This document shows positions 256 through 60,012 of a stretch of DNA of 64,000 nucleotides, one piece after another. Below the pieces are notes generated by a model. The model ran no database searches and was not told where the DNA came from. It saw nothing but the letters and a program-made list of their open reading frames with translations. Made by a program: the position numbers and the translations under genes. Numbering within the stretch: the first letter of the stretch is position 1; each line of letters starts with the position of its first letter. Source of the stretch: Hormiphora californensis (Eukaryota > Animalia > Ctenophora); contig CM035360.1 of the NCBI GenBank assembly GCA_020137815.1, positions 6,076,001-6,140,000 of the forward strand, given 5' to 3'.

Positions 256-3200
256 TTATTTTAGTTTAACCGTTATCGTGTGCCATGCATTGCTAAGGCA
301 GCCCCGTAGATTCCAGATATTTCGAACTTTTTCAGGTTGTCGGTTGTAATTTGCATCCACCGCACAACACGTCACCTTCACTTCATCACCAGGGTTCACT
401 CCCTCTGGTAGGGGCACTTCAATCTGAAATAGAGAGAGAGTTGTTATGTTCTAACCCTCCCTTTACATTTGTAAACACAGTCTAGCGGTCTAGCTAGGCA
501 AAGAGTTGGAGTGAACAATTACAAAGTAGGTAATATGAATATTTAATTGTTTGATAGGGGTAATTCCTGTGTGAAACCAATGTTATTGTTTGATCTATCC
601 CTTGTTTTATCTATTAAATTATCCAGAAACTTATGTGAGTGTGTTTGTATAAGAAACATAAACGTGGCCTATTATGGCGCCAGCACAAAAACCGGTAATG
701 CAATGGATAAACCGGATACAGCCGCATATGCAGGAAAATTATCCCACGGTATACGACTTCTGCGCGCTGGTCTCTATTCAGTGTGTATCGCGCGTTACGT
801 TTATGCGATGGAGTTTCAAACTTTTCAACACTACTTTAAACAAATTAATTTGAGATCTCTTCCAACCCGGCCCTCGCGGTCGGCTAGGTATAGTCATGAC
901 GAAAAGAACGAAGAAGAGAACGACGAAGATCACCGTTCCCCCTTCCTCGTCATCGGATTCATGCCCAACATGTAACATCCACTGGGACGATGAAGACGAC
1001 ATCCCCTGTGTGGCTTGTGACAATTGTAACACGTGGTTTCACATCAGATGTGTCGGTATCCCCGATCATTCTTTCTCAAACCTCTCTGAGTCCACCAAAT
1101 GGTACTGTGCTCGCTGTCTTAGAATCCCAGATATTGTACCCGCTACCCCCCTCAAGGCATCATGGGGAAAGCTGTCAGGTCCAGCTCTATCAAACTCTTT
1201 GTTCAGCATCCACTCCAAAATCTCTTCTTTCCGGCCAAACCTTTTCAAACTACCTTCTGGCAAAGCTGGTAAAATGTTTGTAAGTGAGGCTACGAGACTC
1301 GTCAGTGAATGGACTTCTTCTTCCCCCCTCGAGAGTGTTGCACTGACTGCACTACACCTCATGGGTCCTCTTCTTCTTCAAAACCCGGGGCGTAAATCAA
1401 AAACATCTGAGCAATCTGCTGCCCTTCTCCGTCGATTTCTCCTTTGGCAGACGGGAGATTTCGATGCTCTTTTGTCGGAATGCACTGTTATTCAATCCAG
1501 GTTACCCAAGTCCACCGCTGCCGACAATAGGAAAGGTTTTGTTCGGATGATGTTTATCGGGAGAGTAGGGGCTGCTATGAGACTTCTTAGTGCCACTCCA
1601 TCGGCTGCCCTAGAGATAACTCCAGCAGTGGTGAAAGACCTAAAGGAGAAACACCCAGAGGCAGCTCCTCTAAACCCTGACCACGTCATTTCTACCGACG
1701 TACCCCCTTCTTTTGAGCCTGCCATATTTTTCAATCTTAATGCTGACAGCATCAAACGAGCTGCAGCAGCCACGAAAGGCGGTGCTGGACCCAGTGGGAT
1801 GTCAGACCATCTATGGGCCCGTATGTTGTGCAGTAAAGCATTCGGAAAATCATCGGAGTCCCTTGCCCATGAAGTGGCTCTGATGACTAGAAGACTGTGT
1901 ACAGTGTACGTTGACCCTATCTCGCTGAGTGCACTACTATCGTGTAAACTGATCGCTCTAGACAAGAATCCGGGTGTCCGTCCTATTGGTGTAGGTGAGG
2001 TTCTACGTCGGATTATTGGCCGTTCTGTTTCCCAACACCTGAAACCAGAAATCATCCAAGCTGCTGGCCCTCTTCAACTCGCTGCTGGCCAACAGGGTGG
2101 AGCCGAAGCGGCGGTGCACTCAATGAGAGCTTTCTTTGACGATGAGAACGCAGAGGCGGTACTATTGGCTGATGCTCGTAATGCCTTCAATGTTCTGAAT
2201 CGTCGGAATGCATTGGTGAACATTCAGTATCTTTGTCCTGCTCTTTCTATCTTCGCCATAAACCTCTACCGCTCTCCTGTCCGTCTTTACCTCTCCGATG
2301 GCTCTTTCATCCTGTCATCTGAGGGAACCACCCAAGGCTGCAACATCGCCTCTCCCCTTTATTGTATAAGTCTTCGTCCTTTGGTGGATAAACTTTCAAC
2401 CACTTCCCCAAATCAAATTTTCTATGCTGACGATGGAGCAGCTGTTGGCTCCCTTCTCGGTGTTAGGGAATGGTGGGACTCCCTTGTTGCAAATGGTCCT
2501 GGCTATGGCTACTTTCCCCGTCCTGATAAATCAGTGTTGATCGTAAAACCCGAACATATGGAGGAGGCCAAAACGATTTTCATTGACACTGACGTCATCA
2601 TCAAATCAGACGGTCATCGCTATCTTGGGGCACCTTTAGGTACAACAGAATATCAGCAAATGTATATCTCCAAGAAAATTGAGGAATGGGTCTCAGATAT
2701 ACAGAACATCTCCAAAATTGCTGAAACAGAGCCTCACGCGGCTTATTCGGGTTACTGCATGGGTCTATCAAAACGTTGGCTTTTTCTCATGCGAACAACA
2801 CCCAACACAGCCGAGCTCTTTGCCCCCTTGGAATCAGCCATAACCTCCTTGTTGCTACCTTCTATCCTACGCAACCACTTCAGCCCATTACACCGAGAGC
2901 TCTTTTCCCTCCCATGCAGACAGGGTGGCCTTGGAATAAACAACCCCTGTGAGATCGCCGAACTTGAGCACCAACGATCTCTTGTCGCAACTGCACCGCT
3001 CTCTCAAATCATCACCGAACAGAAAACAAATATTGACGATGAGAGAGCAGTGCTAGTTGCCAAGAGATTGAAGGCTGCCAAACAGGAGGTCCTACACTCT
3101 AAGCTTGAAGTGCAGAAGAAACGCCTTGCCGAGGTTGCCGAGAAACTAACACCATCTCAACGGCGGCTTCATGAAGAGCTATGTAGGCGAGGTTCCTCAA

Positions 3201-6200
3201 CCTGGCTAACCACTCTACCTTTGGAGGAACACGGTTTTGTCCTGAACAAATTAGAGTTTAGAGACGCTCTGTCTCTGAGATATGACCTTCCTCTCCACGA
3301 ATTCCCCAACCACTGTGCATGTGGCAAACTAAACTCGATCGAACACAGTCTAAGCTGCTCTCGTGGAGGTTATGTCAACCTTAGACACAATCAGATGCGT
3401 GATCTCACTGCGAACCTCTTAGCTGAGGCTGGGCTTCCACTAACTGGAGAGGAGTTCAAATACCGTTCCGCCATCACCACCGAAGAGGCTCGATTAGATG
3501 TCTCAGCACGTGACCTCTGGTCTCCTATGGCAAAGCTATTCCTTGATTTCCGCGTCTTTAACTCTCGAGCCCCCACCAATCAATCTCTTCCTATTACCAA
3601 GGCTCTCAAGAAACACGAGGATGAGAAGAAGCGAGCATATGGTGAACGTGTCTTGCAGGTCGAAAAAAGTTCCTTCACACCGGTTGTCTTCTCGACATCA
3701 GGAATTATGGGCGATGAAGCAGACAAGTTCTATAAGAAGCTTGCTTCTAAACTTTCCGATAAAACGAAACAATCCTATCCCGACTCTATCCGGTACATTA
3801 GGCAACGATTATCATTCTGCCTCTTGAGGACACTTGTGATCAGTCTAAGGGGTCACCGTGGCACTAGCCCAAAACGTTTCAGCGACAGGAATGATATTAA
3901 CATTTTATACATGATTAAAAACAATTCGAATTAATTTATTATATCCATTTTATGTACAGATAACCTTGATTTCTATATCCATTTTACTAATTGAACCGGT
4001 ACCCCGGCTTTTGCAAAAAAATTTATGCGATGGAGAACCTTCTCTGAAACATATCAGAGCATTTGGGTTCGGTGATCCCTTCTCAACATTGACCCAGTTC
4101 ATTGTACAAGACAGTGCTGGCTTGGGTCCAAGAACGGCCCACCAATCCCCCTGTCAAGCTAGCACGTGCTAGAAGTGTGCCAAATCTGGTCAGTTACCAT
4201 GGCTACCAGGAGGTCTATATAAACCCGGTCACCACGTGCAGATTCTTTGTCCGTTTACTGCTATTGATTTGCTGTTGTTTTCACACCGCACGTCAAGTTC
4301 CGTAAACTATGATTTCTCCTGTAGAAATCTGTCTTCTCTTCGTCGGCATCCTCGTCCTTGTGGCGTTGTCTACGATACTTGCCGGCCTTCACGCTTTTGC
4401 GAGGAGGCTCAGTTCTCTGGAGGCGTCTGTTCAGGGTGTCTCTGTTGACCTTGCTTCTTCGGGAGCTCGCGTCACTGACAACTTGACAGTACTGAAGTGG
4501 GGAGTCATTCACGTGGCAGACCAGATCAAGAGACACCAGACAGACTGCAAGGCCCACAGTCTAGCTGCACTGGTGAAACTCCTAGAGGCACTCGTGCGTG
4601 AGCACGTAACGTCTCGGGAGCTAATCAGGAACGCTCAGGCGCAATCCTGGCTGGCAATTTCCCAGGTCGTAGACCGGGCAGCACGGAGGATAGCTGGCCA
4701 GTCAGGTAATTCCTCTACCGTTGAGGTCCAGACGGATGTCGAGCTCGGTCTTGTACCGGGCAAGGACGCACCCGTCCCCTCAGCGGATTCCGTTATCCTT
4801 CAGATGGAGTAAGCCTTTAGTGAGACGTGTGTGCTCCGGCTCTCCATCATGTCTGGTTCTCTTGGTCTCAATGCCCCGTGACTGACTATCCTGCTTCAAC
4901 CTCCAGAGATTCTACTGGCAAGTAGGCCAATTGACGAAGAAAGACCTTTTGCTGTTTATCAGCGGTTCCCGGGTCCTCTCACTCTGACTCCTATTCTGCC
5001 TGGCAAGCAGGATACGGGGAAGGCGTGAGGGGGTTCGGGTTCCCAGAGGGGGGAGTCACTGTGCAATTGCCAGGCGATATCTGACCTCCTTTATTGGAGG
5101 TCAGATAACGCCTAACAATTGCATAGTGACTCTTCGTACCAGCGATGGCCACACAAACTTCTTGTGTGATCATCGTCCCTCTGCCGTGAGCCTGGTTGGT
5201 TGATGGCTCCGTGGGTACGGTCAATCCCACAAAACCCTATATCCCAATAGATCCTTGTAGACCAATAGATCAAGTCAAGTCAAGTCAAGTCAAGTCAAGT
5301 CAAGTCAAGTCAAGTCAAGTCAAGTCAAGTCAAGTCAAGTCAAGTCAAGTCAAGTCAAGTCAAGTCAAGATTAAGTCAAATCAAGTCAAGTCAAGTCATG
5401 ACGATGAAACGGGAACAAGATAAAAACATATGGCATCAAAACCATTGTACTCGAAGATCAGAACATCAAAAGTCAAGGATACCAAAAGTCGAGAACATCA
5501 AAAGACAGCACAATACATCAAGACAGTACAGATAAAGACCACAAGACAGTGTGAACATTTACTTGTACATTTTGCTTCTTTTCGTTTATGAAAAAAGTGT
5601 CTGATATCTTTGTCTACTCTCTAAATTTAAAAGGTGGTTACTCTACTCTACAATAACTGGTCATCATGGACCACATCACCACCAGATTCTGGTCCTGGTT
5701 GTGTTTTGGATCACGTCCCAACTCACCTTCCAGATGGACCAGGACCAGGTCCTGTTTAGCGGAGACTCCTCGTCCTGTATTAGTTCTGCTGTGTGCCATG
5801 TGTCACCCCCATCCAGAGTTACATCCACCCTTATCACCTAGTGGAGGAGTTGTATGAGAGAGTTGTAAAAGATGTGGAATTGGGGAATCAGGAATGGGGA
5901 GATCACGACGGAAACTATCCTACTTTATGTTTATAGTCACTACCCGGTTCTCAGTGTGCAGCACTATAACAGTTGGTTTGGATGAACAGCGAACAATACA
6001 AGGGCTAACATTGTGTTATACACTATCTGTGCAGTGTTATAGTCCGTGGGGGTGGAATATGGATACAATGAGTTTTACCTTGGCGCCTGCCCCACTATAA
6101 GCGTATCCTCTAAGAGGTATCTTGTTCCCAGGTAACACCGTTACAGTATCTTCATTAAGCGGGTCACACACCTGGCAAGGGATCGATGCAGTATTAGGGA

Positions 6201-9026: not shown

Positions 9027-9093
<67 letters not shown>

Positions 9094-14342: not shown

Positions 14343-14462
14343 ACAACAGCGGGTTGACCAATATCAATAGCAAAGTACATTCATGTTATTGCACTTTTCT
14401 TCTTATTTCAAAAAGTTGCTTTCGATTGTTAAAATGTTTCCAAAATAATAATAATAATAATA

Positions 14463-15096
14463 ACTAGTAAACCCGCTCGCCCTACGGGCGAATGTCGGGG
14501 ATGGTCATACAGTAAACTAAGCAAATAGTGTAGTTTCATTTGAAATTTTTTAAATCAGTAAATTTATCAGGTAAATTAACCACAGGGATTCTTTCGACAG
14601 AAAATTCACGGGTCCTCTTTTGCCAGGTCCTGTTGTATTTTATGAAGGAGCACATTTACAAAATACTTTCACGTATTACTGTCATTTCTTATTAGTGCCA
14701 TTGATACTTTGTTATTACGTGTGTTGACAACATTTTTTGAATTTAAATAATCACCTCTTTTGTAGGATTCTATCACGTAGTCTATAGGTGTCAGCGCCAG
14801 TTTGGGACATATAGCTCCTCCAAACTCGCTGGCGATTGTGTTGAAGTTGAGTAGTCATGTTCACGAAACGTGGTGAACAGATCAAATCGAGCAAACGATC
14901 AATCACACAACCGGCAGAGAGATGAATCAAGGATGCACGTGCAGTTTAAGGCTCAAGCTGGCAGGTTGCCAAGGTCCCTTTAGGGACAACACGTGCAAAA
15001 GGCCATTTCCAGGAATTTTTGCGTGGCACTATTTGCCATATTTGGTTAAAAAAACGGGACATGGGATTTCCCTATTTGCTTTAATAATAGTATGAT
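14463..15096 (+). mobile_element. Probable Helentron-associated non-autonomous element (HINE-like)
   Basis: Starts ACTAG..CCCG..CGGG short hairpin and ends GCTTTAATAATAGTATGAT. Splits the 3' end of the SL-ORF1 element from its (ATT)n tail. Confidence 0.45.
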
Positions 15097-15224
15097 AGTA
15101 ACAGTTTATATCCCGCACTGACACAGTTTGTATACAGACAACTCGTTTTCCTTAATTTGAAAGGGACTGCAGTAGACTGCCTGCTCCTAGCACGGTTCTC
15201 TGATAACGGTGAGTTAGTGGGGAA

Positions 15225-16181
15225 CTATCCCACTTGGATAACATTATTACGGATGAAGTAGCAGCCGTCAGGATCTTCTGATCGTATCCGCTTCAAAGTG
15301 GACCTTAGAGCTTTTTGCTCTTTCAGTTCAGAGGGCGTAAGATCCGGAGAGAGATAAACAGCCGAAAATTGTTTGGAATCTTTGAGGTTTCGTGCCTTTC
15401 TGAGGAGTGCGAGGAGAGTCGCTCTCTTCTCCAGGGATACTAAGAGCGGTCTAGGGCGCTTCTCATTTCTTTCGCCGATGCGTTTCATCGTAGTCACTTT
15501 CGGTTTCTCTTTTAATTCCTCAAAAAGTTCGTCTAAAGTAGTTTTAGCTACTCTATCGGTTGTTTCTGGGAGACCAAACACAACCATGTTCTTCTCTCTT
15601 CCAGGCTGTAGGACGGGAGTAGGATGATTCACTGGTAGTGATTTTCCCACTTTGGGGGAGGTTGCAGCACAATTCTGTGCTAGCACAGTAGAGTAGGCTT
15701 TCACCTTCTGCACCGATGCTGTCACTGTACTGAGTTGTTGGTTCTGGTGGTTGATGACCGTTTGCTGAAGCTCGATCACGCTAACCCGATGGCGGTCAAG
15801 TTCTTCTTTACATTCACGCAGCTGTTTCTCGAGGTTTTCTGCACTGATAACCGTTTCAAAATTGTTCATTGTTGCTCGGGCAAGTTTCATACTGGAGAGA
15901 AAAATACGCGAAGTAGCCTCGATTATTTCACTCGTAGTTCGGTCCTTGAGACAATGTCTAAAGTACGAACCCCAGTGCTTGCCAGGCGAAGCTATGCTGT
16001 CGTTGGTTAACATTGAATCGGGTGCAGCTCGAATCGATCTATAACATTGAGTAAACTCATCTGGTGTGATGCTCGTCGTGTTGTCCGAATTCAACAGGTA
16101 AACTTCAGAAACAAACTCATTTACTGTCTCTTCTAATCGTTTTATCACAGGGTTATCGCCCTCGTACTTCGCTTCCGACAT
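15225..16181 (-). CDS. CR1/L2-type ORF1 protein (coiled coil + RRM-like + CTD)
   Basis: Coiled coil, then KNMVVFGLPE..KRIG..RPRPLLVSL..LK..VYLSPDLT..YFIRN, the typical LINE ORF1 C-terminal signature. Confidence 0.8.
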   Translation of the reverse strand: MSEAKYEGDNPVIKRLEETVNEFVSEVYLLNSDNTTSITPDEFTQCYRSIRAAPDSMLTNDSIASPGKHWGSYFRHCLKDRTTSEIIEATSRIFLSSMKLARATMNNFETVISAENLEKQLRECKEELDRHRVSVIELQQTVINHQNQQLSTVTASVQKVKAYSTVLAQNCAATSPKVGKSLPVNHPTPVLQPGREKNMVVFGLPETTDRVAKTTLDELFEELKEKPKVTTMKRIGERNEKRPRPLLVSLEKRATLLALLRKARNLKDSKQFSAVYLSPDLTPSELKEQKALRSTLKRIRSEDPDGCYFIRNNVIQVG

Positions 16182-16237
16182 TATCAGCGTTTCGTTTTTC
16201 TGCCCTTCGGGGCTGTTACATCGGATTCATCTTCCTG

Positions 16238-16281
16238 CTCAAATTAATTTGTTTAAAGTAGTGTTGAAAAGTTTGAAAATC
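16238..16281 (-). other. SL exon copy 2
   Basis: Revcomp GATTTTCAAACTTTTCAACACTACTTTAAACAAATTAATTTGAG; one mismatch to the other two copies. Confidence 0.85.
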
Positions 16282-17006: not shown

Positions 17007-20000
17007 TCACTGATCACTACTCTCAATAAAGTCTCTGGCAAGTTTTCGAACCTTCTCCGCCCTCTCTTCTTCTCCCTGCTGCACTTCAAAGTCAATGTAT
17101 CGTTTAAAAAAGAATTTCATCTTCTTGGCCGGGAGTTTCAGCCCCACAACTCGGTCCATCAATAGTCTGAGAAAGAAAAGGGCAAATGTTAGGGCTTGAT
17201 AAGGGTCAGAAGGAGGGACATACTAAATGCAACATTCAAACTTGTACAACTGTACCTAGTTTGCTCGTGGTCACCCTGAGCGATGGTTTTGTCAAGGTAG
17301 ACACTCCACAGATCCAGTCTACCTGGGTAGCTGGTCAGGACATTCTCAAACATCGTGGCACCCTTAGCGGGCTCCCCGTGTTTGTATTCCAGTTGAGCAA
17401 AGTGAGATATCGTCCTGACATCTGGAGGGGAAAGGAGGTGATAGAGTGGTTTAATATTGAGATTTTCAGATGAGTGGATGAGACGGAGTAGAGATTATGA
17501 GATGAGTATATAAGCGAGGGCCGGAATTTGTAAAAAAAAGTTCATTGATAACGCACGTTTATGTTTGGGTAGAGATTTGAGGGCCTTTGTGAGTAGCTCC
17601 CTTGCCTCGGTCATCCTTCCCTCTTGTCCTGCCAGGGAGGTCCCATACCCGCACCACACATTCCTACTGCGGCGGTGCTTTTTCAGTAGTACAGAGCTGT
17701 AAATCTCGTCAAGCTCCTAGGGGGACAATGTGATTAGATGCAAAGATAAGTTTGATAGAGACAAAACGAAAAACAAACTTTTCAGAAATATATCTGTCCT
17801 ACTCCTACTTTCTCAGAACCTACCTCAAACTTGTGTGACTTGTCAAGCACTGCTGCTAGTCGGGTAAACACCGCCTTTGGGTCATTAACAGCAGCGGCAG
17901 CCTGGCAGCTTGCCATCAGACTATCAGATGTTCCAAAAGAATTCTCCAGGTTAAACAGGGCAGACCAGACATTCAGTTTTTCTGATTCCAGTCTACAGAG
18001 GGAAGGTGTTGGTTAGGAAAGTAGTAGGGGAAAAAGGGGGGGGGGGGTAGTCCTGGAAAGAGGGAACGGAGAGGGAACGGAGAGGGAACTGACAAACAAT
18101 ATTCTCCAACTTACCGGTAGTTAATTGTATCAAAGGCACGTTTAGCAACAGCCCTTGCTCTCTCCACATTACCCCTGCCCAGCCAGTACGCCATAAAGCT
18201 CACCCAGCTCGCACTACAGTCCGGACTTGCCGCTACCAATCTCTCAAAGTCTTCCTCAGTCTCTGCAGCAGTGGTGTCTGTCTTTCTCTCCGCACTCCTT
18301 AGCTTCTCTTCCTCTTCTATCTTCCGTCTCTTGGCTTCCCTCTTAGCTGCACTCTTGCTCTGAAATGCAATGTTAGATGTAGTGTTACATTATTTAAATC
18401 ATGTTAGCAGGGGTTATCTCCGGGGAGATTCTCCCCGATTTTGAGAAACTTATTCTGCCGAGATGAAAAAACAAACTACATACCAGTGGTTTGGCCTCTT
18501 CTTCTTTCTCCTTTTCTTCCTCTTCCTCCTCCTCCACCTCTTCCTTCTCTTCAAGTGCGTCACTTAGTGAGAGACCTTTGGGGGCTGAGGGGAAGATAAT
18601 TATTGCCAATCCGAAACCCATCCGAAATGACAAGTGAACAATGGCCAGAGGATTGATAAAATCACCACACTTACAACTCCCACACGTAGCGCGGCAAAAT
18701 GAGGCCGAGGTGACTGCACCACTACTAGTCATTTACCGGTTGAAGTTAGTTTCGGTTCTGGTTGGGCGAATGTAATCTTTGGACCATCATCCTCTTCGTC
18801 TTCCTCATCTCCCTCGTCTCCAGACTGTGGAATAGGGGGAATTCAATTTGAATGAGGTAACTAATCAGTAACAATTGTATCCATGGTAACACCTCGATAA
18901 CTGAGGTAACCATGGTAACACATTGGTTATCAAGGTAACCATACTGTGTAACTGACCTGTTCAGATTGTTCACTCTCACTATTAGCCAGCCTCTCCATCA
19001 GTATATCATCCAGGCACTTCTGCACATCACCCTCCTCATCATCATCCTCACTACCATCCTGTTCCTTCCTGGCCTTCCTCAGATCACTGGCCTTCATGCT
19101 TAACTCGATCTTGGGTTCCGTTACCATGACAACCGCACGGACTAACTTTCCAGCGGGGAACATTGGCTGCCAGTGCTTCAGAAACTGATCACTCATGTTC
19201 TTCAACATTACCCGACCTGGGGAAGACATGTCGTGAATTAGGAGGGATCTACACACAACTAAATGTTTTGACTGCATCATTCAACCTCCAAATGGAAAGT
19301 ACACAATCGAGGCTCAAGAGGACATGATAAGATAAGATTTAAAAAAGTGTCAACAATTGCTGATAGGATCCACCACAGCACCCAGGGAGGGATCAGTTAC
19401 TAACCTGTTACATTGTGTCCCAAGGAAATATAGACACCCAGAGAGGGATTAGTAGACCGGACATAACCATAAACAACCTTCCCCACAGCCACATCTTTAG
19501 CATCAGATATTACTGGGTTAGTAACTTTACGTGTACCACCTGAGAAGTGTATCACACCATCAAATAACAGGTAACTAATTTCGTGGATTGAATACAGATT
19601 ACAGAGCCAAATTGATGTAGTGGACCCTTGTTCAATAAGTGGTACGCATAACACCAAACTATCCCGTAGCGATCTATATGTCATGCCTGGTGTTAATTTC
19701 GCCAGCTCAAACCCCGCTCAAACAAAGTTAAGTTAACTCACCACCGCCAGCTTTCTTCCACCGCTGGCTAAGCCTGCTCTTCCTACTGGAGAGAACCAGT
19801 TGTCGTTCCTCTCTCTTTACAACAGAGCAGTGTACCAGGGTATCAGATTCAAAGGGCGCCAGAGGGTCCTTATGGTATGTATCTGGAATTATAACGTGGT
19901 ATAATGGAGGGCTGTTTTGAATATAATGCCAGTGCAGCGTCCAATCATCAAATCCTAATCAGTGGTTGTCCACATCCAATTAATTAGATAATTAGTTGTT

Positions 20001-23000
20001 AGTTTTGTACCTGATATCTCTGTTAGTGGTATGATGCCATACTCCCGTGGTGTAACCTGTACCTTCACACCAATACCAGGTAGGGTAGATTTAACGGTAC
20101 ACCAGAACTTAGCTCCCTCTGAGCAGGGTCCTGGAGAAGGGGTACATCGTGAGGGTGATTTGTGTAACCATGGTAACCATGGCGATATGTGTAACCATAC
20201 ATGGTGATCCGTGTAACCATGGTAACAAGGTGATCTGTGTAACTGCACTTACCAACAAGAGATAGATCCAGCCGGTTATCTTGAATACTGAACACAGTAG
20301 CGGTAACTGGCTGACCAATAACAAACCTCTCCGTCCACCCGTCTATTTCTGATTTACTCTGCGAGGTCAGAGTCCGAACTAGCCGACCATCTACACCCGG
20401 TGATACACCTGAAATGTACCAGTATAATGTGGTTGTTATATCAGAGCCCCATCAGAGCTCTTTCAGCACTGCACAGATTTCAGTTGGCAGAGCGATCAGG
20501 GGAAATTTATACACCTTTAAAGTTTAAATACATAGTTATATTAGTTCAAATTAGTATGTTGAAGATGAGTTAGCTAGATGAGCTTGTAGGTAATAGTTCT
20601 GTAAGACTTACTAATCCAGATGAAACCACGGTTGTCAAAGGCCCGAACAAATCCAGATATCTCTTGGCCTACCACAAGGGTCTTTATCAAATCAGCTGAC
20701 TCATCAACCTAGAGGGTTATATTGTTGTATCTAATACGAGGGACTATGTTGGGATTGGGAACAGTGGTTGCCACTCAGAATCAGCTGTGATTTAGACAAA
20801 GATTGACACAGCAAATAGAAACATGATACGAGCAAGAGAGAAGGGGTAGAAAACGTAAGTTTGGAGTCTCTAACTTAGACAATAAGAAGAAACAATTCAC
20901 ACAACTTACCGTGTATTTTTGAGTTTGTATGACGTTATGTTTGTCAGTTTGTGGCACGCACAGGGGCGGCGGATAAGCATATATCATGGATATTGGAAAA
21001 TGAAATAACTGCCAGAACTAATCTGACTTTATAGTGTGTGGTGTACCGTAGACATGTTGTGTCTAGCAAGTTTATATCTTTTCCCCTAGTTCTCACCTTC
21101 TCCTTTTCACCTATCTCTCTCACTTTTCCCTCACTCCCAGCCTGTTTGATACTGAACTCCCCGACCGACATTACAAAGTTGGTAGCGGTAATGGGCAGGT
21201 AGCGGTGTGTTTTGGAGTGCCTGGAAGGGAGTAGTTGAGAAATGAAGCGATAGATAATAGTAGAGGGACAGCGACTACTGTATACAATTTCAGGACAAGT
21301 CACAAAAAACCAGTTTTTACCTGAATCCGATAAGTTTAGCTTCGAACTTGTCCCCCTGTTTGAATTGTGTCAGAGGGTTGAGATCAGCGGTGGGTGTATC
21401 TGTCACTTCCGTTATGTGAACTCTACCTTTCACCTGAACAACACATGAGAACGGTTAGACAACGATGCCAGGGATACATTGTGACATAGCAATGGGATAA
21501 AACGAAACTATAGGATTGTCAGACCTGTTAGGACAAAGATGAATATGAATTGTTCATACATTGTTAGTTTAGTAACACAAGGATAAATGTAGGATAAATG
21601 TAGGATAAATGTAGGATCGTCATCTGTTAGGGCAAGGATGAATATGATATGAATTATTTTAACCTTTTTGCCAAGTTGCACGTTCAATTGTATTGCTTTC
21701 ACTGAAGTAACGGTGACAGTGTAAACTTGTCCTAGTTTAATGTCATCGAATGTGACACTATCACCCTCACTCTTTGTCCTCTTCCTCTTCTCTCCTCCCG
21801 CTGTCTTGACAAACTCCAACAAGATTGGTTTACCTAAAATAGAAGGGGAAATAGTGGAGACGGATGGGTAATGGATCCTGAAATATTTTACGAATAAACC
21901 AATCATACAAACACATGTGTTTCAGAAATGTCAAGGAGACAAAAACAACTGATACCTTTCTCAGCAGTGCTAACAGTAAACTTCTTCTTGTCTCCACATG
22001 TCACTTCCTTGTTAACTAGCCTCCTTGAATCGTTGGTGTTGCCCCTTCGGGGTGCGTAGCACAATCTGGTACAGGGCGGTTATAAATAAGTGAACCAGGG
22101 ATTAATGAGGTTGGCGAGAAAAAAGGGGCTTGGCGTCACAGTGATTTGAATTGAACTTCCATGCGATATAGTACATCACACGCATGTAATTGCACTATTG
22201 TTAGCTTGTTCGCCCGGGTTTGGTACAGTCTGCGGCGCGCAGTGTTGAGACGAACACGTTCCGAAAATGCAGGATTATGGGAATGCAAATGAAAGTTAAA
22301 TAAAAATATAAATATTACCTGTGTCCCTTGTCAGCAACGTAAACAACAAAATACTCCTCCGTCACCAGAACAATCTCCCCCTCCACTTCCTCTCCCTCCT
22401 TCATCTTCTTCTTCTTCTTCCCCTCCTTCAACCCTTCTACCATCTCAGCACCATTACCGATACTGTATATATTCTGGGCAGCATCATAATCCAGTACCAC
22501 CCCCTCCATCTCAGTCCCGACATGTTGTTCCTGTGTCCCAGAAATAAATCCAACACCGGACCCAGTTAGAGATACAAAAGTGCCCTCTTTGGCCACCCTC
22601 GTTACTTCGCATGTAACTAGGCAACCGGGCGTATGTGCTGGCTGTCGTCCAAACTTCTCCCACTCAACAAACAGGCGTGAGAGCTGATCGACAGTGTTGC
22701 CCTCTATATCTGATCCCTTGAGAGACACCAGAAATCGGCCTTTTTCAAGATCAATATTTGTGACCTTACACACCACACTCTCGTTTGCTTTGAAGACCTC
22801 CGTGGGATCGCTCACAAAATCATCGCAAAGACAGGCCTTGGGACAGAGACCAATAAACCCGTTCGCTGTCTCAACAAAACATCCATAGTTCTGGAAATCT
22901 TTGATGTAACCAGGAACTAGGGTTCCAACTTCGAAATCCGTTATTTGCTTCTTGTTAGGGTTTGATTCCATCCATCCGAGAAGAGATGGTTTGGTGGTGA

Positions 23001-24769
23001 CAATTATCTTCTTCTGCCGCTTGCTCAATACCAAGACTTTGGGGAAGGAGGACCCGGGCGCGAGGAGGAGAAGGGGTTGTTCAAGAGCTGGGAAATCTGT
23101 TAGATGTCCGACCGGTAAATCAGCCTGTTCCCCAGTGCTCAACTGGACTAGGATGTTGTCTGTTGTTGTTGAGATGACCTATAGGAGGGAAGGAGTAATA
23201 TTAAACGTGGGAGGAGGAGTTGAAAGTAAAGGAAGGGGTGACGGGGATACGAGGAGTTGTTACAGAAAAAGAATAGAGATGGAAATTATTGACTTACTGT
23301 CGCGGAGTAGGTTTGCCCCTTTCTGGCCCATTTTGAATCATTAGAGTTTTTAGTAGCCGTCTCTTCTATCAGGTTGAGGCTGAGAGTCAATTTCTGATTT
23401 TCTGCATCAACACTTACAACACGGCAAGTTAACACCTGAGATAGAGTGATCATACAATACAACATAGAACATTCATTTACTTCCTCAGTGACTGAGTCAA
23501 TCCTCGTGTATTTTGAATTGACGCGGTTTCGTCTGACACTAAACCGAGGGAGACGCGCACACTGCTATGCTGTACGTAGTCCTTCTTTTACAATTCACAC
23601 ATCGCGCGTTACAAACAAGTAGTGTAATAAGGGGTGGGTTTTAGGGACAATGCGTGGTGCCACAAAATACACAGATCAGGGAACAAGGGACGGTACATGA
23701 CAGTGTGATTCTGTTACCAATTTGTGTCCAAATTGTCATGTACTAGTAAATAAAACGATTCTTAGACAACATCATAATTACCTGCCCGATCTTGTACATT
23801 CCTTCTATCTGTTCCACACTCAGAGGAACGTTGGATATTTGGCTGTTGTGAACTAGACCCTGAAATACAGAATAATGGTTTTATTTAAGTTTTATTTTAA
23901 GGAATTCAAGGCTTGTAATGAAAATGACACAACAGGGTGATTTCCACTTACCCTAACGTTTCCAGTAAAGTTCATGATAATTCCAAATGGTTTCACAGCA
24001 GCAACCCACCCTGTGACCTGTTCCCCAACCTTCATACCATCAAATCCCTGGACATCCGCTGTGTTGTTCCGGACCAGACTCTTTTTTAGGGTCAAAGAGA
24101 CACGTCGCTTAGCAACGTCTACAGAGATTACTTTCGCTTTCACTTTCTGGTTTTCCTTAAACTTTAGGGAGGGGTTCTTGATTCGGATATCGGCAAGGTG
24201 CAGCTTGGGCACCAGTGCTGAAAGAGAGATTGACTGTTGTTCAATGACTGTTTCTGTAAAGCAGTTGCCTTTTTCGACCCTGTCTCACAGCGCCCCACAC
24301 TCTTTAATAAATATTTTAAAGGAATACTAAATAAGTACCTCTGATGTTTTCAGCAAGTTTGACGATCAGCCCGAATTCCTCAACAGTCACAACAGTTCCT
24401 GATACTGTAGAGGCTACTACCACATCAGCATAGGATAGGAACTGTTTCGATAGGTCACTATCTCGTAGTGATACCTAGCAATGGGATAACAATGAAAAGA
24501 GGAGATGGAAAAGATCAAGTGGTTACTTCTACTGTTAGCTGGCTTTTGAAAGCTATAGTTCATATTCACTTTTCTCTATAAATTTGAGATTTATTTGTTC
24601 TCATCATGCATTTATTTGTTTTTGTTTCACTTACCTGGACCAGATTATCTGCACGTCGATATCCCATCACCCTAACTTTATGGGTCGTACCAGCCTTGTG
24701 CTTAGCTCCAATCTTCTCAGAATCCTTGTCCGTGATCTTGGATCTATGAGCAAAACCAAACACTCCTGC

Positions 24770-24806
<37 letters not shown>

Positions 24807-27131
24807 TATCAGTTTTTGGGATATAATAAGAGACTTGGACTTATCACATTATACTGATTATTTCTTAGTTTTAACAACTGTTTGACAACTAACCTGTGTC
24901 AAGTTCCAGAAATATTCCATCTTTGGTAACCCTGGTAACAGTAGCATCCTCAACTAGTTGGCCCCGATCCAGGGGAGGTGATCCAGCTGATTCTTCCAAT
25001 GTCAAGTGACATGATAGAGTACTGAGGAGGACACCCTGAAGAGAGAGAGAGGAGGTTGAAATAAGTCATCGCGGTAGTAGGGTACATTTTAGCGTTCCCG
25101 CGGGTCATTTTGTTACCAAGAGAGGGTTGGAGGTTGAAATAAGGGGATATATATTCACACTCAGCATAATATTTTTCTCGGTGTAAAGGAAGTGAAATAT
25201 AATTTACCTTATTTTCAGGGTTTATAAAAACAACGCGGGCCTGTAATTTTCTCTTGATTGGATACACCTCTTTTATAGTCCTCTCATTTCCATAAAGATC
25301 ACCCAGGTGGACTAGATGAATAGCACCCTGAAAATATACACGTCATTGCAAACTCCATATATATGGGAATCAGCTGCCATGGGACAGTGAACGCCATATA
25401 TGGGCATAAAACACTATGTTCACATGAATTTTATGCCTATATTTGGGTATCACGTGACTCACCTGCATGCCGTTGAGGAAGGAGCATCTGAGGCCGTTGA
25501 CAGTGTGTTTCTTGACCGATACATTGACCAGATGTCCGGGGAGAAGGGAAGAGAAGTTTCCAATCACCTTATCTGACTGAATCCTATCTTTTTTAGTGTA
25601 CCAATCTGGAAACATTGATACGTTGTGGTAACACAACTAAGTAGAAAGCTTGATGAGAAAAACAGTCAATAATAATATTAGTTTGTCCCAAAAATAATCA
25701 CCCCTTAGTCCTTACCCAGTATAACACTGCTCTCAGTAGCACTCTTTACGGTTGCCATGACAACGTCACACGGTTTCAGGGTGACGTCAGCAGACTTGGA
25801 AAGGAAGGCCGTGGTGTTGGATATACCGACATTAACCAGATACCCATGATCTTCAACACTACTTACTACACCCTGTACCACCTGGGAGAATTATTGGGTT
25901 ACACCCAAGTTACACAAAAGTCCCGGCACTTTTACAATCCATACTGAATAGATCGAAGACTCCCAAAGCAAACTGATAAAAAATTGTTCAAATGTTATCA
26001 AGGACTGCCGGAAAAACTTCAAATTCAACAAAACTAACTCATTTCCCACGTTATATGATTCTCACCAGATGTTTGTTGAGGTCTTGTAGTTTGAGATGTT
26101 TGTTAACAACAGAGGGTTTGGTAGTCAGGTAGCACTTTTTAGCCTTGTTAACTGTGTCCACTGAGAGGACACTACACAGGAGGGACTGTCCAACACTAAC
26201 AATGTCACATAGATCTGGTACCGACTAAAGGGGGGGGGGTTAGGAGAATACAACCTCCTTGATCTGAAACAAGTGTCCAAGCTACTTTATGATCAGCTAA
26301 TTTCGAGCTACTTTAATTTCACTGCTATTTCTAATACTCAGTACCACAGATGGCATGCCCCATCCTATTGTCCCTTACCGTATCTTCGGTGTTCCCTTCT
26401 TCACTGGATAGAAGGCTGTTAAACTCGTCACTCAACTCAGTGCCTGAGTGACAAGTGTTTTAAAACCCGCGTGTGGAAGCTGTCAAGTATCATCTTACTT
26501 TTACATGTTATCTTAGTTTGGGTTTCCAGGGGACATGAATATTGAATATTCAACCAGAGCCCAGAATAAATTAAACTTCAACATTAAAATTGCAGGGGCG
26601 AAGTGTGTTCCACATACCTTTTATAAAACCTGTGAGACCGAATGGGAGATTTAACACAACATCAACCTCCCCAACCTCACTCACAACTCCAAGGAGAATA
26701 GTACCCGGCTGAAGTTTCTGAAAAAATGAAAGATATATAAAGATCTAGATTATAATCTGTTGTACTGTGTTCTGAACAACAGTCGAGATTCAACAACTAA
26801 ATCCTATACCTTGTATGAGACTTGTTCCAGAGGTTTTCCCAGGTCCAGCTCATCTTTCAACGTGTTCTTCTTAGGTTCCTCAACTGGGACTTTCTAAAAG
26901 AAATGGATGTCACATTTCAAAAGATGTGAAACAAACTATATCGTGCCTGCCATCTAGTCTGACGTAAAATATCAATGTTTTGAAGAACAGGAAACTTACG
27001 AATAAATTATCACTTTCTGGTCCTTCCTTAGTTTTTAGTTTTTTAGTGGTCGATCGACCTCTGACAAAGTCAACTTCTTCTGTCAGCTTTCGTTTTTCTT
27101 TTGTCTCTGATTCATCTCCGGCAACCGCCAT
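17007..27131 (-). CDS. PDCD11: rRNA biogenesis protein RRP5 (S1 repeats + C-terminal HAT repeats), many exons
   Basis: N-terminus MAVAGD..VDFVRG. S1-domain exons, e.g. GYIKDFQNYGCFVE (22315-23142) and FKENQKVKAKVISVD. C-terminal HAT exons ending LPAKKMKFFFKRYIDFE..ARDFIESSDQ* (stop 17007-17009). Confidence 0.92.
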
Positions 27132-29464: not shown

Positions 29465-29536
<72 letters not shown>

Positions 29537-46248: not shown

Positions 46249-46951
46249 CCAGAAACCCCCTAGTGGCCCCTAGGGACCCCCAGGAGGCGCTAGAGTCACG
46301 TAAAAGCCCCCTAGAAGGCTCCAAGAGACCCCTAGAGGCCACTAGAGTCGATTAGAGTCCCTCAAAAGCCCAGAAAGATCGAATGCAGCCCCAGATGAGC
46401 ACACAAGGCCCCCAAAAAGCCACTAGAGTTCTCTAGAGTCCCCTGAAACGCCCCAAGAGGACACCAGAGGTCCCTGAATGTCCGTAGAAGTCCCTAAAGA
46501 CCCACAGAGGCATCAAGGATTGAACAGTTAAAAAAGAGCTGTGTTTATATAAATATATCGCCATGTAAGAACTTAATTAGCGCCATGTAAATGGCGCTAA
46601 TAATTACTTTGGCGCTTTGATGTGGCGGAGTTTATGTGGCGCCAACTATGTGGCGTCAATTATTGACGCCACACCGAAAATTCAAAAAACCACGTGGCGC
46701 TAAAATCGACTAAAAATCCATTGGCGCCATCCTCTCAAAATTGACGCCACGTCCTGGGGCCAACGCCACGTCCCTGGGGCCAAAAAAGAAAAGCGCCAAT
46801 TCGAAGCGCCAATTTCGACTATTAACGCCACATGAACACCGCCAAAAAGGCTCATTGGCGCCACGTCCTGAGAATTGACACCACGTCCAGGGGCCACGTG
46901 GCGGTTAAAACCGCCACGTGGCGGTGTTCAAGGGCCGTGACCCTTCTACCC
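45030..46951. mobile_element. Inner TIR element rich in GGCGCC/GTGGCG
   Basis: ~215-bp inverted arms GGGTAGAAGGGTCACGG../..CCGTGACCCTTCTACCC, flanked by TGTGCA on both sides. Confidence 0.65.
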
Positions 46952-53700: not shown

Positions 53701-56700
53701 CCTTCTTGTGGTTCTCGGTTACATACTCCTTGAGTGCGGAAAATACAGCTCGTACCGCTGTACACCACTGCTTGTGAGCCGCACTGATGGAGGGATCTCT
53801 AGTTTGTGGGTTAACAATATGTGCAACATATTTGTAAATTTGTTCAGTGTCTAGTTGGCGGTTTTGTTTGGTTTGCTCGTGTTGGCAGTAGCTAGCTGGG
53901 CACGTACGACGTGGAATGTTGGAACTATCAATTATTCATAGCTGTTGTCTTGCAAGCATTGTATATCATTACGTGTTAACTGTTAATAAACATTGTGTCA
54001 GCATGATCTCAATCAGATCGCGTCATTCTACCACACACCATATAAGGGCAGCACGTGATACTCACACTTCTTTAAAGTCCTTGAGGACCCTGTTCAGGTA
54101 AAAGTCAGCTGCACCAATCATTTCACCCATGTAATCGAGGGGTCTGGGAGCCACACACACCCATCCAAAAGCAGGGACGGCCTCACTCACAGCAGAGAGA
54201 TGGTTGAACTGCTTACTACCCCTGTTCTTGTCTCGGAACTCCTGTGGGGGGAGTATAATTATAACATGTTGATAATATATACAGGATTATTTTGGGACTT
54301 TTATCCATTTAAGTCAGTGATTGTCATCAGTTTTTTCCCCACTTTATGTGAGCCGTTTTATTTCAGTTTTTCCAAGTTGGTCTTCTAAGAGAGTGTTTTT
54401 TTCTAACTTTGCATCCCGCTCTGATTGCCGTCAGTGGTAGTAGTTATATTTTGATCTATTGCCCCTGGACGGTATGGGCGGAATATAATAAGTACGTGTA
54501 TTATTATTATTATTATTATATCGAATATACAATTCGAGTATAAATACAAACACGAGTGTTTGTATTTGTACAGTACTCCAGGGAAATTTCATTGCCCTGT
54601 CGAGTACTCCTGAGGACACAATCCCCACAAACCACAGCAATTCGAGTATATATATGTATATTTGCTTATAAAGGGATTTCTGGTAAAGCGCTTGACAGGA
54701 TCAAGATTCTGGAGCTGATTACAAAGTAATACAATTCGAGTATATATATGTACTTTGTTTCCTTCTACAGAATATTTATGCAACTCATTTGCTTTCTTGC
54801 TAGTGTTAGAAAGAGCTAGCTTCTAAACCATTTAAGAAGAAAAGAGTTACACGGCAAATAAACTAATTTACAATATACAGAGACTAGTTTCTATATTACA
54901 GAGACTAGTTTCTTACCCCGATAGCACTGATGGCGTCGTTTAGAGGCTTGATTACAGTAGGTAGGTCCGCCTGAAAATAAAGTGTGTGTTAGATCCATCT
55001 TTCTCAGGAAGGAATATACATCAAAGGAAGGAGGACTTGATTTGTTATCTGGAGCTTGAACAAAATTTATCATTTGAAGGAAGTGGGACACGTTTCATAT
55101 TTTTCATGTAGGAAGTGAATGACTTTATATTGTAATATGCTCTAGAGATCACCAGATACAGCTGATTGTTTTGAAAGAATAACAATCATCAGTTCTCCCA
55201 GAGGCAGCTGGTAGTTGTTTACACACAACACACACCGACACTACTACTCAGGTTACACTTTCTGTCATCACAATATATCTTTTCCACCACACGACACTCG
55301 CCTTCCACTAGAATTTGATATTGGGAAAGTCTTTAAATATTCTCTTTCGATCTGCGACGAACAGACTATACTTTTGGAAACATACATCTATGACTATACA
55401 AATTAAAAGCTAGATTTTAGAGTACAAATATTGCTTCAAGTCTCCTTCCCATTTACTAACACTATAAATTTGGCAGATACTAATTGAATTTACCGCCGCC
55501 AGCCACACGTACATAAGCAGAGAAAATAGGAGGGTAGTAGAACTGAAGAAGTAGTAGGACACGGATATAAAGAAGAAAGGAGCTGAGTAAGCTGGTAAAG
55601 TGGTGACCATGGTAATTACCTGGGGAGGCATCTTGGCTCGTACAGACACCCTCATGAACTCCCTGTTCTTATCACACACCAATTTGAGCATCTTTGACTG
55701 AAATAGACGACAATGTTACTTTCATATGCTGCACTGGTATAAATTTTAGTAAAACAGCATCGATATCGAATTTGAATCAAGTGAATGTTTTATCGAAATC
55801 ACTTACGATCTGCTGGACGTCCTCAGGGAGAGAGTTTGCAACAGAGACAAGGGCCTCTGCCTTGGCGATGACTTTGGAAAACTCTGTAACTGACTCCAGG
55901 GTATCTAAAAATGGGGAGATCAATACAATTGGTCTATTGTTCAATCATGAATCACCTCTTAGTAGAGTCGATAACTACATCGACCTCTCCCAATTGTTCC
56001 AGTTTTTGTCACATCTGTTTGGAGCCTCGACACGACCTCTAAACAGGTGTTACTTTTTCACAAACTGTTTTCATCTTGGTGTAATCAGCAGTTGAAATGT
56101 TGCTGATCATAACAAAAACCTGACTAAATTTTTTCAACTTGGGGTAAAACCATGGGTGTCAAAAGTTAGCTCTAGGTCCCCTGAGTAACCATCCGGAGAC
56201 TCTAAGAGATATTTCAAGCCGTTCTCCCGTAATCATTAATCCCGGTGGAGAAAAAAATACAATGCGGACGTACGTGAGCGCTGGCAGGCTGTTTACATGT
56301 TATTGTATGTCTCTCACTCTCTCTGGAAAAACCGCACGTGCGGTTGCGCCGCGCGAGATAACTCTTTCTCAAGGGGGAGAAAAGAGAGAGACGCACATTA
56401 ACGTTATACATTAAAGTTGAGGTTGTAGGCAATTGCACGTACGTCCATACTCAAATATGTGCTCTACCGGGATTAATGATTACAGGAGAACGGCTTGAAA
56501 TATCTCTTGGAGTCTCCGGATGGTTACTCAGGGGACCTAGAGCTAACTTTTGACACCCATGGTTTTACCCCAAGTTGAAAAAATTTAGTCAGGTTTTTGT
56601 TATGATCAACAACATTTCAACTGCTGATTACACCAAGATGAAAACAGTTTGTGAAAAAGTAACACCTGTTTAGAGGTCGTGTCGAGGCCCCAAACAGATG

Positions 56701-57325
56701 TGACAAAAACTGGAACAATTGGGAGAGGTCGATGTAGTTATCGACTCTACTATCTCTGAAAACGTCCTGAATTATGGAGGCCCGAAAACGTGTTCCGACG
56801 CGCACCCTACGACTTGAAATTTAGTGCTTGACAGTGTGCGGCGCGCATAGTGGAAGCTATTACGGTATTTCCCACGCACCGTGTGAAAGTTTTTGACCGT
56901 GGGAAAGTTTCCGAACCGTGGGAAAAGAAAGATTTACAGAAATGGTAAGAGTGAGAAATTTTTCTCTTTCACGTTTTCTATCTATCTCTCTTTTCCCACG
57001 GGTCGGAAACTTTCCCACGATGCGTGGGAAATACCGTAAGAGCTTCCACTATGCGCGCCGCACACTGTCAAGCACTAAATTTCAAGTCGTAGGGTGCGCG
57101 TCGGAACACGTTTTCGGGCCTCCATACCGTTCAAAGAGCTTGGTAGAACGTCGGCTTAGTATCACCAACCAACGTCCTGAATCTCTAACGATAATTATTC
57201 TTGTTCTCACCGTAATCATCGTCGTCATCAGCACCACCAGCAGGAGCACCCCGTCCGCTGGCACACTTCTCCAGACGAGTAGTGACGGATTCCAACCGCG
57301 CTACCAGCTTCTCCATATCAGACAT
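48778..57325 (-). CDS. CAP1: Adenylyl cyclase-associated protein (CAP/Srv2), multi-exon
   Basis: Exon 1 [19 protein letters not shown] (RLE motifs); [17 protein letters not shown]; poly-Pro then [26 protein letters not shown] (WH2); CARP exons [40 protein letters not shown]. Confidence 0.95.
51286..53357 (+). CDS. Secreted papain-family (C1A) cysteine protease with I29 prodomain and two C-terminal ShKT-like domains; nested antisense in a CAP intron; 4 exons
   Basis: Signal peptide; [24 protein letters not shown]|IRNSWG. ShKT-1 [20 protein letters not shown]|..[15 protein letters not shown]; E/K-rich linker; ShKT-2 [21 protein letters not shown]|..[13 protein letters not shown] (stop 53355-53357). 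Confidence 0.88.
53505..53672. repeat. (AAAC/AAAG)n microsatellite
   Basis: Direct inspection. Confidence 0.9.
55960..56752. mobile_element. Foldback/MITE with ~280-bp inverted arms in CAP intron 1
   Basis: TAGTAGAGTCGATAACTAC..GTAGTTATCGACTCTACTA. Confidence 0.85.
56773..57126. mobile_element. Palindromic MITE containing the TAGTGGAAGCT-family core
   Basis: TATGGAGGCCCGAAAAC..GTTTTCGGGCCTCCATA; the core is homologous to 58973-59194. Confidence 0.8.
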
Positions 57326-57492: not shown

Positions 57493-58857
57493 ATAACGTG
57501 TTGGGCAAAAAAAATGTCCCCCCTAGACTAGCATAGTTCCAGATATCGTAGAGCTCTAAAATTTTACACAGCTGTTCTATGGGACAAATAAATAGGTTCC
57601 ACAAAATTTCAGACTTTTAGCTCAAAGTTCATTTTTTTGATCGGAATGAACATTGCCATTCATTCCAAAAAACATGATTATTCGGTCCAGAAGTCAAGCA
57701 TTTGTCTTTGGCTATCGATTTTCTTTCAAATGCGACGAAGAAAAGTCAAAACGGACAACCACAAGGCACACAGTGATCATGTTTCTGACTGTTAGTCAGG
57801 TCATGTGATCCCCACCGAATCGTGCAAGTTATTCAGAATTGCTAATCAGGCTTAGTGGTGGAGAATCACGTATCACAGCCGCTAATGAGGGATGACGATG
57901 ACGATTGGTCATGAGATCCGAAGCTCATTAACAAGTGGCCTCTTTAGCCAAGTGCTCTCGAATCACATGTCGCTTTTTCGATACACATCCCTCATTAGCG
58001 ACTGTGATACGTGATTCTTCCCCACTAAGCCTGATTAACAATTCTCGATTCGTTGGGGATCACATGACCTTGTGGTTGTCCGTTTTGGCTTTTCTTGGTC
58101 GCATTTGAAAGAAAATCGATAGCCAAAGACAATTGCTTAGCTTCTGGACCGAATAATCATGTTTTTTGGAATGAATGACAATGTTCATTCCTATCAAAAA
58201 AATGAACTTTGAGCTAGAAGTCTGAAATTTTGTGGAACCTATTTATTTGTACCATAGAACAGCTGTTTAAAATTTTAGACCTCTACGATATCTGGAACTA
58301 TGCTAGTCGGAAAACGTTAAAATCTGGGTGCCTTCCATTGCTAACAATTCATGGATTTTGGTATTCGAGACGGGTTAGGGCTGTTGTTAGGGTCTGGTTA
58401 GGGTTCGGGTTAGGGGTATCGGTTAGTGCTATCGATTCTCTATCAGATGCCGTTTAGTTTACTCAAATCGGCCATGTGGTTGCGTGGCTATAGCCGTTTG
58501 AAAAAAGTTGGTCTACAAAATAAAAGTGTGCTCTTTTTGCTAGCGCGCACCTGTAAACAGGCCTCAAGGCACCCAGATTATAATCGCGCCCATGCTAGTC
58601 TATACTCGGATTTTTTGAAACTGTCACCCCCCTAAAATAACAAAATTTGTCATATCTCCGGTTCCTGATAAGATAGAGACTTGAAATTTGGAGGTTCGAA
58701 AGAACTTAGCAAGATCTTCGTAACTTCCAAATTTCAAGTCTCTATCTCATCAGGAACAGGACTTATGGTCATTTAAAGAAATTTGAAAACTCTAGGGGGG
58801 TGACAGTTTCAAAAAATCCGACTTTAGGGGGGACATTTTTTTTGCCCAACACGTTAT
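57493..58857. mobile_element. Nested inverted-repeat elements
   Basis: Outer TIR ATAACGTGTTGGGCAAAAAAAATGTCCCCCCTA; inner inverted repeats at ~57526-58308 and ~58605-58822. Confidence 0.75.
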
Positions 58858-59194: not shown

Positions 59195-59364
59195 TCCTAT
59201 CTGCAAACTTTGAAATTTTGGATTTCCGTTCGCGAGTGGTGGATTGTGAAGCCACTCTTGTTGTGTCCCTCTCCCACCTTCTCCGTGTGCCAACACAACA
59301 CTATACTGGTACACCCGCACAGTCGTGTTCCATTTTTTCCGATTTTTTATTTCCGTTCGCGAAC

Positions 59365-59785
59365 AATAACGGACGATCACGCTCGACTGGACATTTCTAC
59401 ACGGGACTTCTGGACACCAATGGACAAGGCATTTTTCGACGTAAGAGTATTAAACTCCCAAGCCACATCCAATGCTGTCCAGTCGATCCCCCAGACATTC
59501 TTAAAACATGAGAAAGAAAAGAAGACGGGATACAACCATAGGGTGTTGGAAGTGGATGGTGGAGTGTTTACTCCCCTTGTAATGGCAACTACTGGCGGTC
59601 TCGGGCGAGAGTTCTCCCGCTTCGTAAAGCATCTTGCAGAACAGAAATCAGACAAGAGTGGCAACAGATACGAAGAATGTGTGAGTCGTGAGATATATTC
59701 GCCTAAGATTTTCCTTCTCGATGGTGAGGAGTGTCACTCTTTCACTTCGAGGGTTCAGAGGAAGACTGAGAGAGGACACTACTGA
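59365..59785 (+). pseudogene. 5'-truncated fragment of a second CRE family (RLE domain)
   Basis: ARLDISTRDFWTPMDKAFFDVRV..KHEKEKKTGY..RVLEVDGGVFTPLVMATTGG; homologous to the C-terminus of 896-3934; frameshifted near the end. Confidence 0.85.
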
Positions 59786-59968
59786 AGATTTATATCTGAT
59801 GTAATTGGTTGTTGTAGTGCCTTATACTTTATAGCACAGAGTTCCATTGGCGCCAGAGAGCGCATTCATCATGTACATCCGAGTACTCTCGGAACCAAGG
59901 TTTTAATACGGGAGCGCTCTCCCCCCTATGACAGACCACCGGTGCGTGGCTATATGACGGTCCCTAAT

Positions 59969-60012
59969 GAGTTTCAAACTTTTCAACACTACTTTAAACA
60001 AATTAATTTGAG
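59969..60012 (+). other. SL exon copy 3
   Basis: Identical to 811-854; followed by TTTTAG, not GT. Confidence 0.88.

Follow-up and report, generated by a model that had tools for sequence, protein, structure and literature searches.

Host spliced leaders at the 5' ends of retroelements in the ctenophore Hormiphora californensis: capture, likely renewal and a possible self-acceptor cycle

A stretch of 64,000 nucleotides (nt) of the Hormiphora californensis genome (contig CM035360.1 of assembly GCA_020137815.1; the whole stretch is called the window) carries three copies of the host spliced leader (SL), each placed shortly before a retroelement open reading frame (ORF). The 44-mer of copy 1 is repeated exactly in copy 3 and with one mismatch in copy 2 (Table 1), and the main ATG follows the leader after 41 nt in copy 1, 56 nt in copy 2 and 46 nt in copy 3. 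The flanks upstream of the three leaders are unrelated, and the host genes within the window carry no genomic SL. No decayed leader copy was found in the 64 kb by a window scan, the next-best ungapped matches on both strands having 17 mismatches. These results bear out an earlier sequence-only reading of the same DNA, which had described three SL copies 41-56 nt before retroelement ATGs, unrelated flanks, no host gene with a genomic SL, and one leader per copy in place of stacked, decaying relics.

Table 1. Positions of the leader-headed elements and associated features in the window
Feature	Position	Strand	Remarks
Left target-site duplication, copy 1	800..813	+	14 nt; its 3' end shares 3 nt with the start of the leader
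Spliced leader copy 1	811..854	+	44/44
Intact single ORF, copy 1	896..3934	+	1012 aa: PHD finger, reverse transcriptase (YADD at 510), C-terminal CCHC and restriction-like endonuclease-like region
A-tail and right target-site duplication, copy 1	4015..4035	+	A-tail 4015-4021 (7 nt); duplication 4022-4035 (14 nt)
Helitron-like element inserted later between A and T (TC...hairpin-CTAG)	14464..15095	-	assigned by eye; high read-run depth (summed contig depths, not copy numbers)
Short 3' part, copy 2	15096..15224	-	three X1 contigs run on here at 15095 straight into a (TAT)n tail
ORF1-type protein, copy 2	15225..16181	-	318 aa, no reverse transcriptase; multi-copy family
5' untranslated region, copy 2	16182..16237	-	CAG right behind leader; two tiny upstream ORFs; GCCC/GGGC hairpin and AGAAA
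Spliced leader copy 2	16238..16281	-	43/44; core of 41 nt without mismatch; junction loss of the first bases probable
Host RRP5 gene	17007..27000	-	same strand as copy 2, ending 726 nt upstream of it; might supply read-through; acceptor test set
Spliced leader copy 3	59969..60012	+	44/44
5' untranslated region, copy 3	60013..60058	+	TTTTAG right behind leader; start-stop upstream ORF; hairpin and AGAAA; identical in L006
ORF1-type protein, copy 3	60059..61078	+	339 aa, no reverse transcriptase; 82% DNA identity to SL-headed L006
3' untranslated region and (TTGAAC)3 tail, copy 3	61079..61286	+	no clear target duplication

The 44-mer is the host SL exon. It is identical to the 44-nt ctenophore leader consensus printed for Hormiphora in PMC8527503 (as for every paper cited here, the reference is to its available text), where the leader is reported on 56% of Iso-Seq reads. 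Metagenome contigs, of DNA or RNA origin and taken together, were scanned for the exact 41-nt core of the leader. This gave 12 matches at 11 loci (L001-L011): seven retroelement-like heads, three host mRNA-like loci and one SL RNA/5S array. In the array (L008) the core runs into a GT splice donor (core followed by GTAAG, twice) and alternates with 5S rRNA genes. In the host mRNA-like loci (L001, L004, L009), which are unrelated to one another, the leader forms the 5' end and the ATG lies 1-3 nt behind it. A 29-nt leader pattern had no match in viral_contigs and genome_contigs. The SL RNA gene at 692-735 of L008 has a C at the first G of the published consensus and of copies 1 and 3; the SL exon may be 43 nt long, its first G being derived from the cap or from the target. 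The first two bases before the core are complete in all three host mRNA-like loci, in contrast to only 3 of 10 retroelement heads (three in the window and seven public), and are incomplete in the remaining 7. The mismatch of copy 2 lies within these two bases and probably reflects loss at the junction, not an SL variant. The T at position 3 of copy 2, which the sequence-only reading had offered as a marker of the genomic SL, is therefore probably a junction artefact.

Copy 1 has the layout of a CRE-like element: a single ORF with an N-terminal zinc finger, a reverse transcriptase (RT) and a C-terminal CCHC plus restriction-like endonuclease (RLE)-like region, followed by a tail and a target duplication. 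In Pfam the PHD finger scored above the cut-off and RVT_1 (E 2e-5) below it. The protein has 752 relatives in a database search; named CRE references were absent among the 120 matches listed and in the PDB, where the only matches were PHD fingers. We take copy 1 to belong to the CRE group from the likeness of its architecture, and the assignment of the RLE motif is presumed in the same way. Because the 14-nt target duplication brackets the leader, the leader is part of the copy 1 insertion. Apart from the 3-nt overlap the duplicated target is non-SL sequence, and no SL intron follows downstream. What is left of a second CRE-like element, its 3' part, lies at 59345-59800 (+); it matches the RLE region of copy 1 at 46% identity, has no leader of its own and stops ~170 nt upstream of leader copy 3. 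Directly past copy 1, the segment 4060-5398 (+) contains a 167-aa ORF (4309-4812) with no convincing Pfam match, followed by a (TCAAG)25 array; it is possibly another non-autonomous element, leaderless.

Copies 2 and 3 encode ORF1-type proteins and end in microsatellite tails soon past ORF1, with no clear target duplication at either. No ORF2 with apurinic/apyrimidinic endonuclease (APE) and RT was detected in the window by tblastn with three ORF2 queries; the two copies lack the ORF2 that stands behind ORF1 in an autonomous long interspersed nuclear element (LINE) of the CR1/L2 group. Their ORF1, whose likeness to CR1/L2 is presumed, gave no Pfam match above the cut-off, and its Atlas neighbours are unnamed ctenophore clusters. 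The two ORF1 proteins are 30% identical over 210 aa and the copies have a motif of the 5' untranslated region (UTR) in common. Since copies 2 and 3 are related, the window holds two leader-headed lineages, not three. The earlier description of unrelated retroelements, one a CRE RT-RLE element and two with CR1/L2 ORF1, thus holds for the PHD-RT-RLE make-up of copy 1 as against the ORF1 type of copies 2 and 3, and fails for the latter two, which are kin and have no RT. Upstream ORFs of 1-4 codons precede the main ATG in copy 2, copy 3/L006, L007 and L010, and a GCCC/GGGC hairpin followed by AGAAA is common to three families (copy 2, copy 3/L006, L010). The motif of small ORFs and hairpin could have a role in ORF1 translation, in splicing or as a promoter element, so that an internal promoter, which the sequence-only reading dispenses with, may be present. 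The hairpin was rejected as a hammerhead, for by eye it does not fit what we take to be the hammerhead core. No 5' ribozyme was matched by Rfam in the window (gathering score) or at seven head loci (E<=1), a search that divergent ribozymes could escape.

Contigs of two DNA runs (X1, X5) and two RNA runs (X7, X18) were aligned to the copy 2 region. The Helitron-like insertion, so assigned from what we take to be the Helitron end pattern, separates copy 2 from its tail at about 14445-14463. Single contigs in X1 and X5 join the copy 2 leader to 16644, skipping 365 nt (16279-16643) of GC-rich, hairpin-forming flank. Behind copy 3, ~430 nt further on the same strand, a host gene begins at 61720 (+) that has no Pfam match and is presumably hnRNP F/H-like.

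The seven retroelement-like public loci widen the range of elements. Five are two-ORF LINEs, four of them (L002, L003, L005, L011) related to one another and equipped with APE and RT, the fifth (L007) an unrelated element with APE. In L005 the sequence behind the leader begins with GT. L006 is a relative of copy 3, 82% identical and set in a different flank. L010, an ORF1-like ORF without a Pfam match, is the least secure of the seven. All four loci that are not SL genes and have more than 10 nt of flank are retroelement-like. Together with the window copies, 10 of 10 retroelement heads join the leader at its last exon base, none runs into the SL intron, and none has a second full leader beside it. 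Sequence comparison thus supports the leader as the head of several unrelated lineages of retroelements without long terminal repeats (non-LTR). The 145-162 nt U-rich 5' UTRs of L002, L003 and L011 end in TTTTAG directly before the start-codon context of ORF1, which resembles a second trans-splice acceptor; in copy 3 the same TTTTAG lies right behind the leader.

The leaders in the window are very probably DNA copies of trans-spliced element RNA that was subsequently reverse-transcribed in full. A different origin would make the leader a target or a chimera, through insertion of the elements into SL RNA genes or through a template switch of the RT to SL RNA. This view draws on the CRE-like architecture of copy 1 and on RLE elements being known to insert into SL exons (PMC4640811). 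It is most improbable here: the duplicated target of copy 1 is non-SL, no SL piece occurs at any 3' end, the flanks differ from the SL/5S unit L008, and the same head is found on APE-type and ORF1-only elements. As all 10 heads end at the last exon base, without SL intron and at non-SL targets, SL-gene targeting is excluded and template switching unlikely; both, and chance, were rejected, and the idea of an SL target is largely refuted for these copies. The leader was probably also added repeatedly from the SL RNA pool by trans-splicing and not inherited. Renewal is likely because the heads stay exact while the 5' UTRs of related families diverge: those of the four related LINEs are 47-76% identical (76% for L003 and L011, which have a common junction), and every head is 41/41, as are the heads of copy 3 and L006, again at a common junction. 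The probability that an unconstrained head stays intact at the rates of UTR divergence is 0.003 to 4e-10, a range subject to the ascertainment bias of exact matching; in the window scan, which did not require an exact core, the core is exact in 3 of 3 heads. That the leader was instead captured once and then inherited, with transcription beginning at its first base from an internal promoter in the leader or 5' UTR and trans-splicing at an end, seems improbable to us. In favour of this, promoter activity is known inside a nematode SL exon, a hairpin and AGAAA are conserved behind the leader in copy 2, copy 3/L006 and L010, and the 46-nt UTR is identical in copy 3 and L006 while the start of the ORF diverges. 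Inheritance does not readily account for exact heads in front of diverging UTRs, and the first two bases, incomplete in most heads, would erode if never renewed; moreover, the UTR motif coincides with the upstream ORFs and may control translation instead.

If the leader is renewed by trans-splicing, the acceptor is the next question. In the self-acceptor cycle, a headed copy would be transcribed from upstream, either by host read-through or by an element-directed start in the flank, and the flank together with the old leader would act as an outron. Splicing at the terminal AG of the old leader would restore the same 5' end and repair the 0-2 nt lost at integration; the spliced RNA, with a fresh leader, would then be reverse-transcribed in full and reinserted, and so on in each cycle. 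More speculatively, a pyrimidine-AG (YAG) just downstream in some families might help to draw in the splicing machinery, the splice itself falling on the upstream AG. We regard this use of the leader's own end as plausible, if slightly short of an even chance. In its favour are the junction fixed over long divergence, the repair of eroded 5' bases and the lack of stacked leaders; reuse of the AG of an integrated SL has been described in dinoflagellates (PMC3229502). RRP5, on the same strand as copy 2, is a possible source of read-through; one of its exons has its best named matches in Mnemiopsis and Bolinopsis (41-43% identity). One contig of RNA run X7 connects copy 2 ORF1 with the leader's final 14 nt, and the same run shows a spliced RRP5 intron. 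A minority form of copy 2 without the CAG behind the leader, found in one contig each of X1 and X5, is the outcome expected of a second splice event at an acceptor 3 nt downstream.

A number of observations weigh against this reading. The integrated leader ends in GAG. To determine host acceptors, three RRP5 proteins of ctenophores were placed on the gene by spliced alignment in which GT and AG were the sole signals scored; at least two guides were required per acceptor, and four singly supported calls were left out. The test covers one gene and cis-splicing only. The 30 acceptors comprised 23 CAG, 6 TAG and 1 GAG, at least 29 of them being YAG; the lone GAG call has an in-frame CAG alternative. 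GAG makes up 176 of 688 AGs in the RRP5 region and is rarer at the acceptors (P 0.0016). A YAG has been kept 3-6 nt behind the leader in copy 2, copy 3/L006 and L007; it should win, and be lost, were re-splicing routine. The terminal AG is also an ordinary exon end before the GT donor in L008, and the 98 nt upstream of copy 2 are 28% A+T, unlike an outron. The CAG-less form could be a plain deletion or belong to another family. The AT-rich flank of L006 contains a patch that resembles the leader at 13/15 (1 in 300 shuffles). Run X18 gave no cover on the element body, which is not evidence of silence, and RNA evidence for the replacement of an old leader was not obtained. Finally, the exact-core scan is blind to diverged or leaderless heads, and four of the seven retroelement-like loci form one related group. 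In another scheme, source copies have their own promoter, an outron and an ordinary YAG acceptor; their trans-spliced RNAs yield headed copies that are mostly dead ends, as processed pseudogenes are, and unspliced RNA maintains the sources. Such a scheme fits the host preference for YAG, the downstream YAGs that were kept, the minority form shorter by 3 nt as at a tandem acceptor, and the exact heads, and it agrees with a passing interpretation of flatworm data (PMC12582326). Still, it is somewhat unlikely. Families whose ORF1 is 44-60% identical have kept the junction, which would require long persistence even though each spliced RNA would lose the promoter; in addition, though this counts for little, no non-SL 5' end at the copy 2 junction was seen among the matches listed. 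The self-renewing head of the sequence-only reading therefore stands in part: the heads are single, exact and renewed in appearance, while use of their terminal AG as acceptor is a prediction, the site being a GAG and the RRP5 acceptors almost all YAG. There is good support for capture of the leader and for its likely renewal; the self-acceptor cycle is a hypothesis still in play, unproven and facing one plain objection. The wider proposal is more tentative and rather doubtful: that unrelated ctenophore non-LTR lineages (RLE-type, two APE-type and ORF1-only) converged on a promoter-free cycle with a self-acceptor leader, and that most dispersed leader copies are heads of this kind.

Further features lie elsewhere in the window. 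A Penelope-like element at 36460-39417 (+), leaderless and frameshifted, with an RT-like region and GIY-YIG, is inserted in a kinase gene; its target duplication measures 12 nt (36448-36459, 39418-39429), it has an inverted terminal segment and, by eye, it shows at 39301-39324 a hammerhead-like core, missed by Rfam. In the surrounding region, 27812-39977 (-), at least three related ORFs for protein kinases stand in tandem, their introns few or absent; we take them to resemble IRE1-type kinase domains. At 44100-47460 lies a long, degenerate palindromic satellite of AAAGCGCTTT type that contains large repeats, inverted as well as direct. Long near-perfect inverted repeats at 32381-33346, 55960-56752 and 57526-58308 (arms of 468, 317 and 241 nt) are probably miniature inverted-repeat transposable elements or foldback elements.

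Non-LTR retrotransposons must regenerate their 5' end in each cycle; known ways of doing so are transcription from an internal promoter and cleavage of a co-transcript by a ribozyme. If host trans-splicing renews this end, it would be a third way. Leader-headed retroelements could also explain why so many dispersed leader copies are reported, 718 in H. californensis and 491 in Mnemiopsis leidyi (PMC8527503). They warn against reading dispersed leader loci as SL RNA genes or shared first exons, and the 41-nt core may serve to tag full-length copies in many retroelement families.

Elements that adjoin an SL exon are known from trypanosomatids, where CRE1, SLACS and CZAR are SL-targeting RLE retrotransposons. 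NeSL of nematodes is another (PMC4640811). Copy 1 is likewise an RLE element next to an SL exon; in those systems the SL gene is the insertion target, whereas the leader of copy 1 travels with the element to unrelated sites and no insertion into an SL gene was found. R2-like retrotransposons are processed at the 5' end by a self-cleaving ribozyme, of which Rfam gave no sign here. In dinoflagellates, the recycling of mRNAs with relict SLs was described by Slamovits and Keeling 2008 (as presented by Jaeckisch et al. 2011, PMC3229502). As proposed for Hormiphora, trans-spliced RNA is reverse-transcribed with its leader and the AG of the integrated leader can take a new one; the paper notes that re-splicing could excise relics. 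The dinoflagellate cases concern host genes with stacked, truncated and decaying relics that arise from an internal AG, in contrast to the retroelements with one exact leader described here; no tandem truncated relics on host genes were seen in the window, or at the 10 heads apart from the weak patch of L006. In flatworms, leader sequences lie beside LTR and LINE elements at 597 loci (PMC12582326), and six SL-bearing elements are reported in PMC5832876. These too are genomic SL exons without SL RNA features beside retroelements, read as integrated trans-spliced RNA. The flatworm leaders are partial and were discarded from searches for SL genes, and the available texts contain no analysis of junctions, target duplications, families or renewal. 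In Hydra, ~30% of transposable-element Iso-Seq reads carry the SL; this is at the RNA level only, and the available text of PMC12220107 does not describe SL-headed genomic copies. The ctenophore study itself (PMC8527503) gives the same consensus and the many dispersed copies, which it treats as leader loci with artefactual read mapping; the word stem 'retrotranspos' has no hits in its main text, and the dispersed leaders are not tied there to retroelements. Further general background is found in PMC6053224, PMC12460157, PMC7986045, PMC2374985, PMC3795323 and PMC5737717. No paper describing SL-headed ctenophore retroelements or their exact renewal was found in a mostly open-access literature, Repbase Reports lying outside it. 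Leaders beside retroelements and the recycling of SLs are already known, from flatworms and dinoflagellates respectively.

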